A DNA stretch of 64,000 nucleotides, taken from the IMG/VR virus record IMGVR_UViG_3300035698_035359, positions 26,260 to 90,259 of that record; one strand, written 5' to 3'. The stretch is from a virus. The translations under genes were made by a program, and so were the position numbers. Below, piece by piece: positions 11,450 through 15,570 of this stretch (positions are counted from its first letter, which is position 1; every line of letters starts with the position of its first letter). The notes beneath the pieces are model-generated. The model saw nothing but the letters and a program-made list of their open reading frames with translations, made no database searches and had not been told where the DNA came from.

Positions 11450-12037
11450 ATGAAGCAATATATTAGAGCAGATATTGAAATTTTTCACGATTGTGGAATT
11501 TTAATTCCAAATAGAACAATATATTTCGGGAGTGAAATTGAGGATGAAGGTGAAGAGGGTGGGGTTGATTTTGCTTCTTCAAAGAAAGTTATTAAAAACT
11601 TACTTTACTTAGATAATAAGGGAGATGAACCAATAACGCTTTATTGGAATAGTCCTGGAGGATGTGTTTTTCGTGGTATGGCAATTTATGATGTTATAAA
11701 AGGATTACGTTCTAAAGTAATTATGATTGGGTTAGGTATGGTGCGTTCTATGGGAACAATTATAATGCAAGCTTGTGATGAAAGAATATTAAGCCCAAAT
11801 ACAGATTTTATGATACATGACGGAACTAGCGTAAATTATGGCGAAACAAAAACAGTTATTGCTTGGGGCAAATGGGATGAAAAAGAATTAGATAGAATGT
11901 ATAGTATATATTTAGAAAAAATACAAGTAAAACATCCTAAATATACCAAAAAACAAATATCTGATTTATGTACTCACGATTGTATAATGAGTGGTGCAAA
12001 GGCTTTAGAATTAGGTCTAGTTGATAAAGTATTATAA
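11450..12037 (+). CDS. clpP: ClpP-family serine protease
   Basis: RTIYF, NSPGG, GMAIYD, G..RSMG (Ser), FMIHD (His), ALELGLVDKV. Confidence 0.9.
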   Translation: MKQYIRADIEIFHDCGILIPNRTIYFGSEIEDEGEEGGVDFASSKKVIKNLLYLDNKGDEPITLYWNSPGGCVFRGMAIYDVIKGLRSKVIMIGLGMVRSMGTIIMQACDERILSPNTDFMIHDGTSVNYGETKTVIAWGKWDEKELDRMYSIYLEKIQVKHPKYTKKQISDLCTHDCIMSGAKALELGLVDKVL

Positions 12038-12045
12038 AATAAAGC

Positions 12046-12075
12046 TTTACAAAGTCACTATGAATGTAGTATAAT
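12046..12075 (+). promoter_or_regulatory. promoter for tRNA cluster
   Basis: TTTACA-18 nt-TATAAT just upstream of the cluster. Confidence 0.55.
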
Positions 12076-12096
12076 AAAGGAGTAAGATAAAATTAA

Positions 12097-12120
12097 ATAA
12101 TTCCATTGAGAATTATTCCA
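12097..12120 (+). ncRNA. acceptor-stem-like microhelix 1 ending U-CCA
   Basis: ATAATTC-cattga-GAATTAT-T-CCA abutting tRNA-Met. Confidence 0.6.
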
Positions 12121-12197
12121 TGCAGAGACAAGCCTTGGTAGGCTAGAAAGGTTCATACCCTTTATTATTGTGGATTCGATTTCCACCTCTGCTACCA
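12121..12197 (+). tRNA. tRNA-Met(CAT), initiator-like
   Basis: AAAGG-TT CAT AC-CCTTT anticodon arm, GTGGA-TTCGATT-TCCAC T arm, unpaired 1:72, encoded CCA. Confidence 0.8.
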
Positions 12198-12262
12198 AAT
12201 TATCCTGCTACTTGAGGTTAATAATATCCAGTGAGATGTAACCAAGCAGAGTAGCACTTATA

Positions 12263-12301
12263 AGGGGTAGGTGTTAAGGTTCTTAACTATCTACCTCTCC
12301 A
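12263..12301 (+). ncRNA. minihelix-like hairpin 2 ending U-CCA
   Basis: AGGGGTAGGTGTTAAG-gtt-CTTAACtATCTACCTCT-CCA abutting tRNA-Pro. Confidence 0.6.
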
Positions 12302-12379
12302 CTGGGTATAGGGGAGTTTGGCCACCCCGTCTCGTTTGGGGCGAGAAGAACGCAGGTTCGAATCCTGCTACCTAGACCA
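12302..12379 (+). tRNA. tRNA-Pro(TGG)
   Basis: TCTCG-TT TGG GG-CGAGA, GGTTCGAATCC, CCA. Confidence 0.92.
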
Positions 12380-12453
12380 AGGGATATAGTATAATGGTAG
12401 TGCATCGGTTTTACATACCGAGAGCGAAAGTTCGATTCTTTCTATTCCAACCA
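12380..12453 (+). tRNA. tRNA-Val(TAC)
   Basis: TCGGT-TT TAC AT-ACCGA, GTTCGATTC, CCA; 1:72 mismatch. Confidence 0.88.
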
Positions 12454-12529
12454 TCTGGAGTAGCTCACTGGTAGAGCGTTGGGTTGAAGACCCGAGACAG
12501 AGGTGGTTCGATTCCACTCTCTAGAACCA
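12454..12529 (+). tRNA. tRNA-Phe(GAA)
   Basis: TTGGG-TT GAA GA-CCCGA, GGTTCGATTCC, CCA. Confidence 0.9.
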
Positions 12530-12603
12530 AGTCGTGTGGTGTAATGGTAACACAAGCGACTGTTAATCGCTTGATACAGGTTCGAATCCTGTCGTGACTG
12601 CCA
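12530..12603 (+). tRNA. tRNA-Asn(GTT)
   Basis: AGCGA-CT GTT AA-TCGCT, GGTTCGAATCC, GCCA. Confidence 0.93.
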
Positions 12604-12709
12604 CAGTTGATAGTTTAAAAGGTAGTTTACTATACTAGTCGATGTAACTACTGCTAAAATCCTTTCTATCTGAAAGGGGATTTAGGTGGAAGTCCTAATC
12701 AACTGACCA
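12604..12709 (+). ncRNA. aberrant tRNA-like RNA with ~32-nt hairpin inserted in the D loop
   Basis: perfect acceptor CAGTTGA/TCAACTG-A-CCA, T arm TTAGG-TGGAAGT-CCTAA, arm CCTTT-CTATCTG-AAAGG, D-loop hairpin GGTAGTT...AACTACT. Confidence 0.7.
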
Positions 12710-12717
12710 AATATTAT

Positions 12718-12739
12718 AGAAAGTTTTTACTTTCTTCCA
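12718..12739 (+). ncRNA. microhelix 3 ending U-CCA
   Basis: AGAAAGT-tttt-ACTTTCT-T-CCA, exact 7 bp, abutting tRNA-Gly. Confidence 0.65.
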
Positions 12740-12816
12740 GCGTCTATGGTGTTAACGGACAAGCATGATAGATTTCCAATCTATTGGTTTCGGTTCGAAT
12801 CCGAATAGACGCTCCA
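12740..12816 (+). tRNA. tRNA-Gly(TCC)
   Basis: ATAGA-TT TCC AA-TCTAT, GCGTCTA/TAGACGC, TCCA. Confidence 0.93.
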
Positions 12817-12900
12817 GGGAAGGTAGTTTAGTCCTATTAAGCCATGGTAACTTGTAGGATAAGATGATTCAAAAGTGGGTGTAAATTCTCACCCTTCTCT
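12817..12900 (+). ncRNA. aberrant tRNA-like RNA lacking a normal anticodon arm and encoded CCA
   Basis: GGGAAGG/CCTTCTC acceptor, TAGTTTA, hairpin GTCCTA...TAGGAT, T arm GTGGG/CTCAC. Confidence 0.55.
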
Positions 12901-12908
12901 AAAATTAT

Positions 12909-12931
12909 AGAAGATATAATATCTTCTTCCA
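12909..12931 (+). ncRNA. microhelix 4 ending U-CCA
   Basis: AGAAGAT-ataat-ATCTTCT-T-CCA abutting tRNA-Cys. Confidence 0.65.
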
Positions 12932-13006
12932 GGCTATGTAGCCAAATGGCTAAGGCAATGAGTTGCAACCTCATTAATGGAGGTTCGATTCCTTCCGTAG
13001 TCTCCA
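12932..13006 (+). tRNA. tRNA-Cys(GCA)
   Basis: ATGAG-TT GCA AC-CTCAT, GGTTCGATTCC, TCCA. Confidence 0.92.
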
Positions 13007-13081
13007 GGGACCATAGTGTCAATGGTAGCATTTCTCCCCTGCAAGGAGAAGGTTAGGGTTCAAATCCCTATGGCTCCACCA
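13007..13081 (+). tRNA. tRNA-Ala(TGC)
   Basis: TCTCC-CC TGC AA-GGAGA, G3:U70 pair, ACCA. Confidence 0.88.
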
Positions 13082-13156
13082 GCCCGTTTAGTATAACGAT
13101 AGTATAATTCCCTTGTAAGGAATAGGTGGTGGTTTAATTCCGACCAATGGGCTCCA
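13082..13156 (+). tRNA. tRNA-Thr(TGT)
   Basis: ATTCC-CT TGT AA-GGAAT, GCCCGTT/AATGGGC, TCCA. Confidence 0.85.
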
Positions 13157-13161
13157 AAAAT

Positions 13162-13338
13162 ATGACATTAAAATATACAATTTATAAAATAACTAATTTA
13201 ATAAATAATAGGTTTTATATTGGGATGCATAGAACAAAAAATATTAATGATTATTATTTAGGTTCTGGTAAATTAATCATACAAGCGATAGAAAAATATG
13301 GTGAAGAAAATATTGTAAATTTATTGATAACAAGTTAG
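13162..13338 (+). pseudogene. truncated GIY-YIG (Seg-like) homing endonuclease
   Basis: YTIYKITNLINNRFYIGMH...YLGSG...AIEKYGEEN, then similarity breaks and the frame stops after 58 aa. Confidence 0.8.
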
Positions 13339-13366
13339 AAACTATTAAAAAATAAAAACAGTTTAA

Positions 13367-13395
13367 ATATACAAGAGATTAATTTGTATATTCCA
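13367..13395 (+). ncRNA. microhelix 5 ending U-CCA
   Basis: ATATACAAG-agattaa-TTTGTATAT-T-CCA abutting tRNA-Asp. Confidence 0.6.
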
Positions 13396-13470
13396 GGTAG
13401 ATTAGTGTAATGAAAAGCACGTGGCTCTGTCGAAGCCAAAGCGAGAGATTGATACTCTCATTTACCGCCA
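13396..13470 (+). tRNA. tRNA-Asp(GTC)
   Basis: TGGCT-CT GTC GA-AGCCA, GCCA end; atypical T and D loops. Confidence 0.8.
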
Positions 13471-13544
13471 GAGGATTTGGTGTAATGGAAACATTTGTAG
13501 CTCCAAACTACAAGACATGGGTTCGATTCCTATAATCTTTGCCA
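13471..13544 (+). tRNA. tRNA-Trp(CCA)
   Basis: TGTAG-CT CCA AA-CTACA, GGTTCGATTCC, GCCA. Confidence 0.88.
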
Positions 13545-13560
13545 ATAAAAAGGAGAAACA

Positions 13561-13755
13561 ATGTTTAATAATAAAAAAAGATGGGACAATGAACAACCAG
13601 AAATTGAGTTTCCGTCACTTGATATACTTAAAGATTGTTTATGTTTTATGTTTTGTATTCAAGTAAAGAAAAATAAACAGTTTCTTTCGTGTTATAAGCA
13701 AGCTTTAGAATCACAGTTAAAAATGGTGGGTCAAGAGTTAAAGACTTTAGATTAA
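13561..13755 (+). CDS. hypothetical small protein
   Basis: AAGGAG SD; CLCFMFC...C. Confidence 0.6.
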   Translation: MFNNKKRWDNEQPEIEFPSLDILKDCLCFMFCIQVKKNKQFLSCYKQALESQLKMVGQELKTLD

Positions 13756-13775
13756 TATTAATTTAAGGGGAGCTT

Positions 13776-13889
13776 ATGTCCAGAGATGGTAAAGGAAGTT
13801 TTTACAAGAAATTAAAAGTTGATAAGGAGACACGAAATATTATTCGTGAATTTAGGTCATGGAAGAAGAAAATTATTAATAAGAAATAA
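13776..13889 (+). CDS. 37-aa basic peptide
   Basis: GGGGAG SD; MSRDGKGSFYKKLKVDKETRNIIREFRSWKKKIINKK. Confidence 0.5.
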   Translation: MSRDGKGSFYKKLKVDKETRNIIREFRSWKKKIINKK

Positions 13890-13918
13890 TTTTAAAAAAT
13901 AAGTATAAAGTTTTATAT

Positions 13919-13974: not shown

Positions 13975-15570
13975 GTGTTAGAGAAATTATCAAATGAAGA
14001 ATTAGATTTTATGGATAGTTGGTTTTATCCGATATGTCAAGCAGAGACTTTGTTTTCGGATTTTGACAATCTCGCAATGATGGAAGATGGTATATTAGGT
14101 AATATAAGGCTTGGTCAATTCCCCTTACTTTCTTATGAATATTTATTAGATGATGAAAATCCTAGTCTTTCTAAAAAAGAGAATTTTCAATTAAGAAAAA
14201 GATTAGGAGATATTTACTGTTTTGGTGGAAGATTGTTTGGAAAAACTTTAATATTAGAAAAAATAGATATGATGATTTCGATGATATTGCAAGGAGCAGA
14301 AAAGGTTGGATTTACTTCCGCTGATGCTTCGCACATTGAAGGTGTTTTAGAAGATGTTTTATATGGGGTAGAAAATCACCCATTTATGAAATTATATGAA
14401 CCTAGTACCAAAAGAAACCCTTACACTGTAAAGTTAAAAACTGGTTATCATATGTTAGGCGTTAATATGAACGTATATGGAAAGAATCCTGGAAAGAATT
14501 TTTTTCAGAAGCATTTTACTAGGCTTTATATAGAAGAAGCTAGTATGGAAACAGATGAAGTTTATAAGAAAAGACGTGATAGTGTTTCGGAATTAGGATG
14601 TGTATTCCGTGTTGCTGGAATGACAGATTTCATAAAACATAGCCCCTGTGGTAGTGTAATGGATGATATAACAAAGATACCTTGGCTTTGTAATCTTCCA
14701 CAATATGTAAACCCAAATTGGAATGAGAAATCTAAAGTAGATGCTATTAGAGATTTTGGCGGGGAACAAACAATTGAATTTAGAATATTTATCAAAGGAG
14801 AAATAGTTGAAGATGCTATAACTGTTTTTGATATGGGAAGAATTCGCCCCCAGTATAATCAAAATAGAAGAGTTAAATTTTTTGAAGTAAACAAAGATAC
14901 TTTTGATTTATTTGAGCAAATAATAATAGTAGAGAGACCCTCTAACGCAGCAACAGTATTTATATCTGCGGATATTGGGGAATCTGCTCCAACGGAAATA
15001 GGAATATTTTTTGAAATAAATAAAAAATATAGATACGTTTATAATATTACTTTATATAATTTAACAGATAAAGAACAATTTAAAATTTTTAAATTTTTAG
15101 GTGAAATATTAGGTAGTAATTATATTGGGCTTGATTGCTCAGATGGTACTGGAAGAGCAATTTTCCGTTCTTTAGAAGAAGTATTTCCGAAAGAAAATTT
15201 AAACTGGTGTTCATTTAATGAAAAAGTAGCAGTAGACTATGTTAAAGATAAAGATGAGGAAGGTAAAGAAGTACTTGTGCTAAAAAATGGTAAGCCAGTT
15301 GAAAAAATGGAATATGTTGTTGCTTGGTCAGTTAAGAGATTACAACATTTATTATATGGGGAACTTTTTGATTTACCCATAGATAACAAGTTTGATACTC
15401 AATTTAATAAAGTAAAATGTTTTAAAACTGGTAACAGAGTTGTATATAAATGTCTCGGAGAAGACCATCTATTCCAAATGTTCCAAGTTTTTGCAATTAT
15501 GCAATGGGATAGAGAATGGTGCAATAATAAACCTATAAAAAAATTAACTTTTTGTAAGTCAGGGAAATAA
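13975..15570 (+). CDS. terL: terminase large subunit
   Basis: GGRLFGKT Walker A, LYIEE Walker B, RNase H-like nuclease acidic residues (ISADIG, GLDCSDG, EDH); position before portal. Confidence 0.8.
   Translation: MLEKLSNEELDFMDSWFYPICQAETLFSDFDNLAMMEDGILGNIRLGQFPLLSYEYLLDDENPSLSKKENFQLRKRLGDIYCFGGRLFGKTLILEKIDMMISMILQGAEKVGFTSADASHIEGVLEDVLYGVENHPFMKLYEPSTKRNPYTVKLKTGYHMLGVNMNVYGKNPGKNFFQKHFTRLYIEEASMETDEVYKKRRDSVSELGCVFRVAGMTDFIKHSPCGSVMDDITKIPWLCNLPQYVNPNWNEKSKVDAIRDFGGEQTIEFRIFIKGEIVEDAITVFDMGRIRPQYNQNRRVKFFEVNKDTFDLFEQIIIVERPSNAATVFISADIGESAPTEIGIFFEINKKYRYVYNITLYNLTDKEQFKIFKFLGEILGSNYIGLDCSDGTGRAIFRSLEEVFPKENLNWCSFNEKVAVDYVKDKDEEGKEVLVLKNGKPVEKMEYVVAWSVKRLQHLLYGELFDLPIDNKFDTQFNKVKCFKTGNRVVYKCLGEDHLFQMFQVFAIMQWDREWCNNKPIKKLTFCKSGK

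Follow-up and report, generated by a model that had tools for sequence, protein, structure and literature searches.

Five small hairpins that look like tRNA acceptor stems punctuate the tRNA array of an uncultured salt-lake phage, and the evidence supports the view that they were placed there on purpose and not by chance. The array lies in the window, the whole stretch of 64,000 nucleotides that was analysed. Tentatively, and with somewhat less than even confidence, we read these hairpins as acceptor-stem mimics, partly shrunken tRNAs, that are kept as RNase P cutting marks in an array without spacers.

Layout of the array and anatomy of its hairpins

In 13/13 units, the base right after a CCA is the first base of the unit. 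Eight of the 13 adjoin the preceding unit head to tail, and the remaining five (Met-like, Pro, Gly, Cys and Asp) come directly after a hairpin ending in U-CCA; reading of the sequence thus confirmed the CCA rule put forward in the first-pass annotation. The units are arranged in the order hp1, Met-like, spacer with hp2, Pro, Val, Phe, Asn, X106, 8 nt, hp3 and Gly, continuing with Y92, hp4, Cys, Ala, Thr, 210 nt, hp5, Asp and Trp (Table 1). The layout of 13 tRNA or tRNA-like units claimed by that annotation also stood, but three of them, the Met-like unit, X106 and Y92, are aberrant and were called neither by ARAGORN, which called 8/13 units, nor by Rfam, with 10/13 above the gathering score; for the Met-like unit there was no Rfam match even at E<=10. 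Y92 can be aligned to X106 plus spacer, and the 3' end of X106 is conserved in the relative L011. Judging from its sequence, the promoter-like site ~20 nt 5' of hp1 is likely the start of the array transcript. At the other end, the last CCA of the array, after Trp, is followed by an RBS and an ORF, with no terminator. Across 134 nt, the homing endonuclease remnant in the spacer is ~75% identical at the nucleotide level to segB genes of the T4 type, and it has a weak SegE_GIY-YIG match (E 0.0066).

Table 1. Coordinates of the tRNA array and its elements in the window
Feature	Position	Strand	Description	Basis
tRNA array, phage genome	12097-13544	+	units and hairpins	read and cut into units
Promoter-like site	12046..12075	+	TTTACA-18-TATAAT	11/12 consensus matches, top site within 11900-13900
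hp1	12097..12120	+	7-bp stem, 6-nt loop, U, CCA; adjoins Met-like unit	fold z -2.96
Met-like unit (CAU)	12121..12197	+	cloverleaf, U1-U72 mismatch, 4-nt D loop, ends ACCA	fold
Spacer, 65 nt	12198..12262	+	begins AATTAT, contains a hairpin of its own	
hp2	12263..12301	+	16 pairs, one bulge, ends U-CCA; adjoins tRNA-Pro	fold z -4.16
tRNA-Pro(UGG), Val(UAC), Phe(GAA), Asn(GUU)	12302..12603	+	zero spacer, CCA encoded in each	ARAGORN/Rfam
X106	12604..12709	+	106-nt aberrant tRNA-like RNA; perfect 7-bp terminal stem and ACCA	
Spacer	12710..12717	+	AATATTAT, type usual between tRNAs of the family (AAATTAT-type in L039)	
hp3	12718..12739	+	7-bp stem, 4-nt loop, U, CCA; adjoins tRNA-Gly	fold z -5.43
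tRNA-Gly(UCC)	12740..12816	+		ARAGORN/Rfam
Y92 and spacer	12817..12908	+	tRNA-like RNA lacking both anticodon arm and CCA, then AAAATTAT spacer	
hp4	12909..12931	+	7-8-bp stem, U, CCA; adjoins tRNA-Cys	fold z -4.52
tRNA-Cys(GCA), Ala(UGC), Thr(UGU)	12932..13156	+	head to tail	Thr: Rfam only, 38 bits
SegB-like remnant	13147..13338	+	GIY-YIG homing endonuclease remnant, 63 codons, in spacer	
hp5	13367..13395	+	9-bp stem including one G-U, U, CCA; adjoins tRNA-Asp	fold z -2.46
tRNA-Asp(GUC), Trp(CCA)	13396..13544	+	head to tail	ARAGORN/Rfam

The hairpin stems are as first annotated: hp1, hp3 and hp4 consist of exactly 7 bp, one base (U) and CCA, i.e. a tRNA acceptor end alone, with stems of AGAAAGT/ACTTTCT in hp3 and AGAAGAT/ATCTTCT in hp4, while hp5 has 9 bp and hp2 16 pairs with one bulge. 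All are fully paired, unlike the real tRNAs alongside, which tolerate acceptor mismatches (A1-A72 in Val and A4-C69 in Ala; U1-U72 in the Met-like unit). None of the five (22-39 nt) gave a tRNA match with Rfam RF00005 to E<=10 or with ARAGORN. A strict scan of both strands of the window for a perfect stem of at least 7 bp, a loop of 3-9 nt, one base and CCA returned 7 sites on the + strand, 4 of them being hp1, hp3, hp4 and hp5, and 0 on the - strand. When the scan was relaxed (G-U allowed, loop 3-14, 0-1 base before CCA, helix of at least 7 bp; both strands of the 90-kb record), a helix was present at 63/2170 CCA sites outside the array (2.9%) versus 5/5 leaders. Folding z-scores were taken against 200 dinucleotide shuffles of each hairpin. 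The number of shuffles that folded as well as the native sequence was 0 for hp2, hp3 and hp4, and 7 and 9 for hp1 and hp5, respectively, so the latter two are weak as isolated folds (-2.9 and -4.0 kcal/mol; four of the five hairpins lie within -2.9 to -6). In a fold of the 1478-nt precursor, hp2 is independent, and the stems of hp1, hp3 and hp5 are kept, with their U-CCA tails paired to bases beyond the hairpin; third-pair probabilities are 0.91-0.99 for the hairpins that form, whereas hp4 is absent from the minimum-energy structure and has a pair probability of 0.59.

Other readings of these elements were tried and rejected. As intrinsic terminators they fail, with no terminator-like site on the + strand of 11900-13900 and A/U-rich stems that are followed by CCA and a tRNA. 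Of 15 sigma-70-type promoter-like sites, 0 lie on hp2-hp5, and the one near hp1 lies 5' of it. No ribozyme or other Rfam family scored above threshold, either in the window or elsewhere in the record. Among the 13 salt-lake runs checked for the array stretch there was no RNA run carrying it; contigs of four runs, looked at for covariation, cover the array and carry no alternative letter at the hairpins.

Junctions in relatives and the origin of the hairpins

A terminase search gave 9 viral and 12 metagenome loci, or 42 viral loci when a profile was used, with no match in GTDB genomes or in cultured phages. L011 is the closest relative by terminase (78%) and the sole close one; a 16-nt string from X106 matches one contig, L184, which is unrelated. 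From the window (5), L011 (4), L001 (3), L146 (2), L155, L160 and L039 (1 each) we collected 17 non-tRNA segments that end in a CCA directly abutting a tRNA. The helix ends 0-1 nt before the CCA in 13/17 and 2-3 nt before it in 3/17; the one segment without a helix, an L146 junction running from Met to Trp, still ends in CCA. The stem sequences at these junctions are unrelated between relatives. Even before the first (Met) tRNA there are three unrelated stems, in the window, in L146 and in L001 (where the CCA is 3 nt off), and some of the L011 segments are not alignable to those of the window. This bears out the earlier remark that stem sequences differ while pairing is kept, as do the two compensated pairs between hp3 and hp4. 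Other family members have plain A/U-rich leaders ending in U, at 37 junctions.

A wider survey took in 113 IMG/VR loci, picked by the zero-spacer junction pattern, with 1200 tRNAs. While 131 of these abut another tRNA, 1068 do not, and of the latter 12 have CCA at -3..-1. By eye, 7 of the 12 follow tRNAs missed by ARAGORN, 4 rows carry a hairpin and one (L120) is without. The four hairpin rows represent three distinct sequences, L039, L049 and L051=L074. The L049 hairpin reads as a canonical promoter, TTGACA-17-TATGAT-7 nt-tRNA. With just 4 hairpin rows among the 1068 non-abutting tRNAs, the motif is therefore rare outside the lineage of this phage, in a sample that is biased because the loci were selected by a pattern drawn from the window's own array. 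The scan for stem-N-CCA before tRNAs that the first-pass annotation had called for thus found the motif recurring in relatives and rare elsewhere.

Where the hairpins came from seems to differ between them. Since hp3, hp4 and the hp2 unit come after AATATTAT, AAAATTAT and AATTAT, the kind of spacer found ahead of real tRNAs in L039, they occupy a tRNA slot, with U at -1. Two modules, each consisting of an aberrant tRNA-like unit, a spacer and a hairpin (X106/hp3 and Y92/hp4), can be aligned, and the two stem positions at which hp3 and hp4 differ are both compensated. The stem of hp4 is found again, unchanged, as the terminal stem of a tRNA-like unit of 100 nt (L181:173-272), and it matches 6/7 pairs and U73 of a tRNA-Gln (L160:4082-4158), a link to full-length units for which p is only ~0.05 once multiple comparisons are allowed for. 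The hp3 stem is identical in L011, where the loop and spacer differ; 0 changes in 18 nt against ~13% divergence in the flanks is not significant by itself. By contrast, the stems of hp1 and hp5 resemble no family tRNA, and the L011 ortholog of hp5 overlaps a 90-codon ORF, with the stop codon in its loop and its 5' arm inside the ORF, so hp5 is no simple tRNA relic. Graded states of decay are found in X106, Y92 and the Met-like unit of the array and in the Thr of L001.

An insert in L011 has a 5' arm, GAGGATT, that is identical to the 5' strand of the acceptor stem of tRNA-Trp in the window, at the position to which it aligns. The match is no more than suggestive. This stretch is also similar to a fragment of a T arm, and the acceptor stem of the Trp in L011 itself is poor.

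It can be argued from these observations that the hairpins are neutral scars, i.e. remnants of tRNA genes after internal deletions, without function or selection, in which both ends of a dead gene last a while because deletions into the neighbouring tRNA are purged. The tRNA slots behind AAUUAU-type spacers, the match of hp4 to full-length units, the Trp-like arm in L011, the graded decay in X106, Y92 and L001 Thr and the lack of significance of the hp3 conservation would all be in keeping with this. However, random internal deletions should give unequal arms, and three hairpins are exactly 7+7; every stem is perfectly paired, better than in live tRNAs; the two pairs that distinguish hp3 from hp4 are compensated; non-homologous segments of L011, L001 and L146 arrive at the same helix-N-CCA end; and neither the ORF overlap of hp5 nor the hp1 and hp5 stems, unlike any family tRNA, fit a relic. 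We therefore consider neutral scars a fairly unlikely explanation. The first-pass annotation had named scars left by random decay as the outcome that would speak against its proposals, and half of that scenario is borne out: some hairpins do look like shrunken tRNAs, but pairing and the abutment of the CCA have been kept where random decay would have lost them.

Possible roles of the hairpins

In the cutting-mark reading, the array would be a single transcript that host RNase P divides at each tRNA 5' end and, with zero spacer, the same cut would give the upstream unit its finished CCA 3' end. At least hp3 and hp4, and probably the hp2 unit, would be tRNA genes whose interior was lost, and hp1 and hp5 may have originated in place. 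We propose that the hairpins have lasted because a unit that has died within an array of this kind is locked in place. A half-decayed unit would burden its neighbour with a long or structured tail, whereas a closed helix with N-CCA would allow clean excision on both sides. The shrunken unit would then act as a minimal RNase P substrate, and the context of helix-N-CCA followed by +1 would thereby be uniform at all cleavage sites. All five hairpins have a helix (7-16 bp), then U, then CCA, the structure predicted for such a substrate. We infer that RNase P does the cutting, including 5' of the hairpins, and that the hairpins have been retained for this reason.

Several points stand against cutting marks. 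RNase P needs no hairpin to process the downstream tRNA, and since relatives do without one at 37 junctions, where the leaders are plain A/U, any gain from retaining the hairpin is hypothetical. The base before CCA is U in 5/5 hairpins, and RNase P favours the motif RCCA, in which this base is a purine. The weak folds of hp1 and hp5, the ORF overlap of hp5 in L011 and the L146 junction without a helix also count against it. On the other hand, RNase P is described as separating polycistronic tRNAs and removing a terminator hairpin endonucleolytically (PMC4176162), and the natural hairpin-type substrates described include phage C4 RNA and pre-SRP RNA (PMC10731613); small substrates are reported to depend on a 3' RCCA (PMC12710915).

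The phage record, estimated to be 83% complete, contains no RNase P RNA, RnpA or CCA-adding enzyme and no match to the Ribonuclease_P or PolyA_pol families, so processing by the host would be needed. The nearest RtcB relatives, from Desulfobulbales and Bacteroidales MAGs, have <=56% identity and name no host. The first-pass annotation had suggested a punctuation route independent of RNase P, in which an enzyme that recognises helix-N-CCA, e.g. a tRNase Z of the Thermotoga type, makes the CCA 3' ends and the next 5' ends. The helix-N-CCA context does recur at 13/13 junctions; T. maritima tRNase Z cuts after CCA, and chemically a cut of this kind would be suitable. However, tRNase Z requires a T arm, which the microhelices do not have, and the phage offers no candidate enzyme. 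As RNase P explains each junction and relatives use plain A/U leaders, we found nothing in favour of this route and regard it as highly improbable.

A different possibility is that processing of the array releases the hairpins as 22-39-nt microhelices with a free CCA, acting in trans as decoys that soak up host factors attacking the acceptor end, such as toxSAS enzymes (pyrophosphorylation), MenT-type nucleotidyltransferases (tailing) and acceptor-stem nucleases, or that occupy the phage's own end-repair enzymes. The phage is predicted to encode RtcB, a Thg1-like 3'-5' polymerase and an RNase T-family exonuclease, a tRNA-end toolkit with which the decoys could form one protection system. The N-CCA tail retained on each hairpin would be unneeded by a mere insulator. 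The toxSAS FaRel2 is reported to modify a synthetic minihelix, reading the acceptor pairs 1:72, 2:71, 4:69 and 5:68 (bioRxiv 10.1101/2024.07.05.602228), which would also favour decoys. But A/U-rich stems of -2.9 to -6 kcal/mol in four of five hairpins make a poor stable sponge, each hairpin is single-copy, Thg1-like genes are carried by 161 phage records, and no single target seems to be mimicked because the hairpins differ mutually and from the acceptor stems of the phage's own tRNAs. Both forms of the decoy idea, including the joint protection system, thus appear improbable.

A role for released microhelices as aminoacyl carriers also looks unlikely from the stems, which begin with A1:U72, are A/U-rich and are without the Gly and Ala identity pairs. 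These are G3:U70 for Ala and G1:C72, C2:G71 and G3:C70 with U73 for Gly. As an aminoacylatable microhelix of the Ala or Gly type, the hairpins were rejected; only U73 fits.

Alternatively, the hairpins could work in cis, either as end caps that, after the RNase P cut, shield the upstream RNA (leader, spacer or the L011 ORF) from 3' exonucleases, or as insulators that stop an A/U-rich leader from pairing with the tRNA. The stop codon of the L011 ORF in the loop of the hp5 ortholog recalls an mRNA 3' stem-loop, and t-elements are described as shaping mRNA ends in plant mitochondria (PMC1920247), both of which speak for caps; for insulators, leader pairing with the tRNA 3' ACCA, or structure near the site, is reported to slow RNase P (PMC10731613). 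Against this, only 8-9 nt of spacer lie 5' of hp3 and hp4, so there is nothing worth shielding, hp1 comes after a promoter and not a gene, and a trailer ending in a shielded 3' hairpin would make the upstream tRNA harder to trim. We give caps and insulators together the same low likelihood as the decoys.

Relation to known systems

Our literature search found no published description of CCA-ended hairpins that punctuate a tRNA array. A natural, genome-encoded set of microhelices would give minimal RNase P substrates an example in vivo. Zero-spacer arrays would then follow a simple evolutionary rule, by which dead units do not decay but are reduced to a stub that can still be cut, and the hairpins would be concrete candidates for small RNAs acting against defences that target tRNA ends. 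If the hairpins are relics and nothing more, the finding would be a neat illustration of how arrays evolve, of limited scope.

The T4 tRNA cluster likewise contains stable RNAs that are not tRNAs (C and D), whose ends lie near CCA, together with a GIY-YIG gene, segB, which the SegB-like remnant of the window recalls. However, T4 tRNAs have 1-10 nt spacers, several are without encoded CCA, and the T4 sequence examined has no hairpin-N-CCA leader. For decades, laboratory work on RNase P, synthetases and the CCA enzyme has made use of acceptor-stem microhelices. Minimal RNase P substrates, whether synthetic acceptor-stem or minihelix constructs or phage P1/P7 C4 RNA and pre-4.5S/SRP RNA, likewise combine a short helix with single-stranded N-CCA and no T loop, but they are laboratory constructs or stand-alone RNAs with their own job, while here five are encoded within a tRNA array, each abutting a tRNA. 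The array hairpins also have U before CCA in place of a purine, and their cleavage is predicted. C4 and pre-SRP RNA are named as T-loop-less RNase P substrates (PMC10731613). In the E. coli valU and lysT operons, as described, RNase P likewise cuts off a non-tRNA hairpin after a tRNA and separates packed tRNAs (PMC4176162); those hairpins are operon-end terminators without N-CCA, whereas the array hairpins are internal, not terminator-like and CCA-ended. HDV-like theta ribozymes beside phage suppressor tRNAs are described as another phage RNA element linked to tRNA function (PMC10879173), but they self-cleave, and the array hairpins match no ribozyme family.

In the array, and also in relatives, a non-decoding tRNA-like fold sits exactly at its neighbour's end, the placement expected of t-element-type punctuation. 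The t-elements of plant mitochondria are cutting marks for tRNA-processing enzymes, and they flank mRNAs and keep more of the cloverleaf, whereas the array hairpins have only the acceptor stem, with CCA encoded, and flank tRNAs. What the two would have in common is the use of non-decoding, at least partly tRNA-shaped structures as cutting marks, as described for plant mitochondrial tRNA punctuation (PMC1920247).

The tRNA array and its leader hairpins

The record, a 90,259-bp IMG/VR virus of 31.7% G+C from salt-lake metagenomes, carries its tRNA array between a ClpP-like gene and a small ORF that is followed by the gene for the large terminase. The array runs hp1, Met-like unit, spacer and hp2, Pro, Val, Phe, Asn, X106, 8 nt, hp3, Gly, Y92 and 9 nt, hp4, Cys, Ala, Thr, 210 nt with a homing-endonuclease remnant, hp5, Asp and Trp, where hp1 to hp5 are small hairpins and X106 and Y92 are aberrant tRNA-like units. 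With the sequence cut into units at its CCA triplets, all 13 units begin on the base directly following a CCA, eight of them head to tail on the preceding unit and five behind a hairpin with a U-CCA end, as the first-pass annotation had described. ARAGORN called eight units and Rfam ten; neither called X106 or Y92. The Met-like unit, also missed by both, has a cloverleaf fold whose anticodon is CAU; its acceptor stem shows a U1-U72 mismatch, and its D loop is tiny (4 nt). A Met(CAU) tRNA with this mismatch atop the acceptor stem is likewise the first tRNA in L001 and L146, two loci of the same terminase family, and the mismatch is initiator-like.

A strong promoter-like site, TTTACA-18-TATAAT, lies upstream of hp1 with 21 nt between the two, and no terminator was found downstream of the array. 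Starting 17 nt past the last CCA, a ribosome-binding site (AAGGAG) and an ORF of 64 codons lie right behind it, and thus the packaging genes and the tRNAs may share a transcript. The remnant inside the array comprises 63 codons of a SegB-like GIY-YIG homing endonuclease, has its ATG within the 3' end of tRNA-Thr, and shares about 75% nucleotide identity over 134 nt with segB-type genes of T4-like phages; an unrelated 90-codon ORF takes its place in the closest relative, L011.

Coordinates of the array, its surroundings and features of related loci (window positions unless a locus or contig is named)
Feature	Location	Strand	Details
ClpP-like gene	11450-12037		upstream flank
Met-like unit	12121-12197		first array tRNA
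First module	12604-12739		X106, spacer, hp3
X106	12604-12709		
Second module	12817-12931		Y92, spacer, hp4
Y92	12817-12908		
SegB-like remnant	13147-13338		
Ribosome-binding site and 64-codon ORF	13545-13760		
Large terminase	13975-15570		
First Met(CAU) tRNA of L001	L001:517-592		
First Met(CAU) tRNA of L146	L146:289-363		
tRNA-Trp of L011	L011:871-945		
Thg1-like 3'-5' nucleotidyltransferase	in C1:12576-18236	-	228 aa, E 1e-21
RtcB ligase	in C1:12576-18236	-	450 aa, E 2e-110
RNase_T-family exonuclease	in C1:12576-18236	-	204 aa
ATP-dependent DNA ligase; zinc-finger protein	in C1:12576-18236	-	

The helix-N-CCA leaders exceed chance expectation. A strict scan of both strands of the 64 kb (perfect stem of at least 7, loop of 3-9, one base, CCA) returned seven sites on the + strand, four of which are hp1, hp3, hp4 and hp5, and none on the - strand. 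In a looser scan, a helix of at least 7 bp ending 0-1 nt before CCA was found at 63 of 2170 CCA sites (2.9%) elsewhere in the record and in all five leaders. Folded in isolation, hp2, hp3 and hp4 were equalled by 0/200 shuffles, and the weaker hp1 and hp5 by 7/200 and 9/200, respectively. When the whole precursor was folded, the stems of hp1, hp2, hp3 and hp5 had pair probabilities of 0.91-0.99, hp2 alone being free of outside pairing; hp4 was missing from the minimum-energy structure and had a probability of 0.59.

Recurrence in the terminase family and in other phages

The terminase family is uncultured and large, with 446 proteins at E<=1e-50 and no cultured relative found by terminase, and its arrays reach 26 tRNAs (L160), which are packed head to tail and encode their CCA. 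Two junction types occur: in one there is zero spacer (CCA|tRNA), and in the other a short, A/U-rich, AAUUAU-type spacer with a final U. Among members with DNA we counted 37 junctions of the second type, after dropping duplicate loci and leaving out tRNA-His, for which G-1 is encoded. A non-tRNA segment with CCA directly before a tRNA was found 17 times (five in the window, four in L011, three in L001, two in L146 and one each in L155, L160 and L039). The helix ends 0-1 nt upstream of the CCA in 13 of the 17 and 2-3 nt upstream of it in three, while one has no helix (L146, Met..Trp). The stems are unrelated in sequence across the family: those before the first (Met) tRNA start ATAATTC in the window, TGACCGTT in L146 and AAAGTAT in L001, where the CCA is 3 nt off.

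In L011, whose terminase is 78% identical, hp3 has an identical stem with a changed loop and spacer, and Y92 with hp4 is replaced by an unalignable 54-nt segment ending in a 6-bp helix, U and CCA. The hairpin hp5 is also present there, overlapping the end of the 90-codon ORF, and the Asp-Trp gap holds a 68-nt insert ending in a 7-bp helix, AU and CCA. In the tRNA-Trp of L011 the D, anticodon and T arms are all intact, but there are only about 4 acceptor pairs; ARAGORN missed it, and its Rfam match is limited to positions 6-65.

Beyond the family, 113 viral loci fetched via the zero-spacer junction pattern held 1200 tRNAs, of which 1068 did not abut another tRNA. Their leaders usually ended in TAT, AAT or TTT, and in CCA in only 12 cases, seven of which were tRNAs missed by ARAGORN. 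Three distinct hairpin sequences were present among the 12, one of them from the family member L039 and another, that of survey locus L049, a textbook promoter; the motif is thus rare outside the family. Three survey loci of unrelated phages (L054, L047 and L115) share a conserved G+C-rich hairpin whose CCA end lies 2-3 nt before the tRNA, and this is another recurring leader element.

Origin of the hairpins and their possible processing

An AAUUAU-type spacer stands directly before hp3, before hp4 and before the unit that ends in hp2, so that all three take the place of a tRNA start and have U at -1. The segments ending in hp3 and hp4 form two alignable modules, each combining an aberrant tRNA-like RNA with an AAUUAU spacer and a microhelix, and from their alignment they look like a duplication; the two stems differ at two positions, both compensated. 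X106 and Y92 share the opening word TAGTT after the acceptor strand. The hp4 stem recurs unchanged in the family locus L181, where it closes the end of a tRNA-like unit of 100 nt, and has 6/7 pairs and U73 in common with tRNA-Gln of L160, matches that are only suggestive given that about 750 comparisons were made. In the L011 insert, the 5' arm has the same sequence as the 5' acceptor strand of tRNA-Trp in the window, to which it aligns in position, but this stretch is ambiguous. It could be argued that the hairpins are neutral scars, which their placement fits, but their symmetry, pairing and convergent ends do not, and we consider this unlikely. Moreover, the A/U-rich stems of hp1 and hp5 resemble no tRNA of the family, and in L011 hp5 lies over coding sequence, so at least some of the hairpins cannot be relics. 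That they serve as end caps or insulators would suit hp5 in L011 but not hp3 and hp4, and is improbable.

The reading that we favour, tentatively and with somewhat less than even confidence, is that the hairpins are acceptor-stem mimics cuttable on both sides by RNase P. It draws on the known ability of this enzyme to separate packed tRNAs and cut off non-tRNA hairpins, according to an excerpt of PMC4176162, and to accept T-loop-less hairpin substrates with a 3' CCA, according to excerpts of PMC10731613 and PMC12710915. RNase P cleavage at each tRNA 5' end would suffice for every junction, and at zero spacer the same cut would also complete the upstream CCA end; the phage itself was found to encode neither RNase P RNA nor RnpA nor a CCA-adding enzyme. 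The RNase P-independent route proposed in the first-pass annotation would be superfluous, and with no candidate enzyme for it we regard it as very improbable.

Within an array of zero spacers, a tRNA that has died could shrink but could not decay freely, and a half-broken unit would burden the upstream tRNA with a long or structured tail. If the hairpins are such mimics, this would account for the exact geometry of 7 bp, N and CCA, for stem pairing that is perfect, better than in live tRNAs, for the compensated stem changes, and for the same end structure being reached independently in L011, L001 and L146. It fails to explain the hairpin before the first tRNA behind the promoter (hp1, L146 and L001) and the constant U before CCA in the window.

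Outside the window, the minus strand of the genome (L022) holds a cluster of tRNA-end and repair genes (see Table), with a radical SAM protein and DnaJ nearby; Thg1-like genes are present in 161 phage records. The RtcB, Thg1-like 3'-5' polymerase and RNase T-family exonuclease encoded there would be in keeping with hairpins acting in trans as decoys, as would the CCA tail, which is always kept, and a toxSAS that, according to an excerpt of a preprint (bioRxiv 10.1101/2024.07.05.602228), modifies a minihelix and reads its stem. The stems of the hairpins are weak, varied and single-copy, however, and a decoy role seems improbable. The arrangement itself is real, non-random and rarely seen, and is most likely a processing device of partly vestigial origin.

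Terminase variants and comparison with known systems

Some terminase homologs (P0061, P0070) are about 845 aa long and carry Pfam PF14890, which we take to be an intein domain and which would mean an intein within the large terminase. In L180 and L181 the terminase match covers 2205 nt for residues 190-530. The 419,765-bp metagenome contig JGI24729J20445_1000001 (L014-L016) carries three copies of one and the same terminase, each about 109 kb from the next, and probably arose by concatemer-like assembly of a phage genome of 109 kb.

We found no published account of phage arrays in which encoded hairpin-N-CCA units abut tRNAs, although the older T4/T5 literature may hold similar cases, and saw no hairpins of this kind in the T4 tRNA cluster. 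That cluster does hold stable RNAs, as well as segB, comparable to the SegB-like remnant of the window. The closest known systems are the T4 cluster, minimal RNase P substrates, tRNA punctuation and t-elements, and the removal of terminator hairpins by RNase P.
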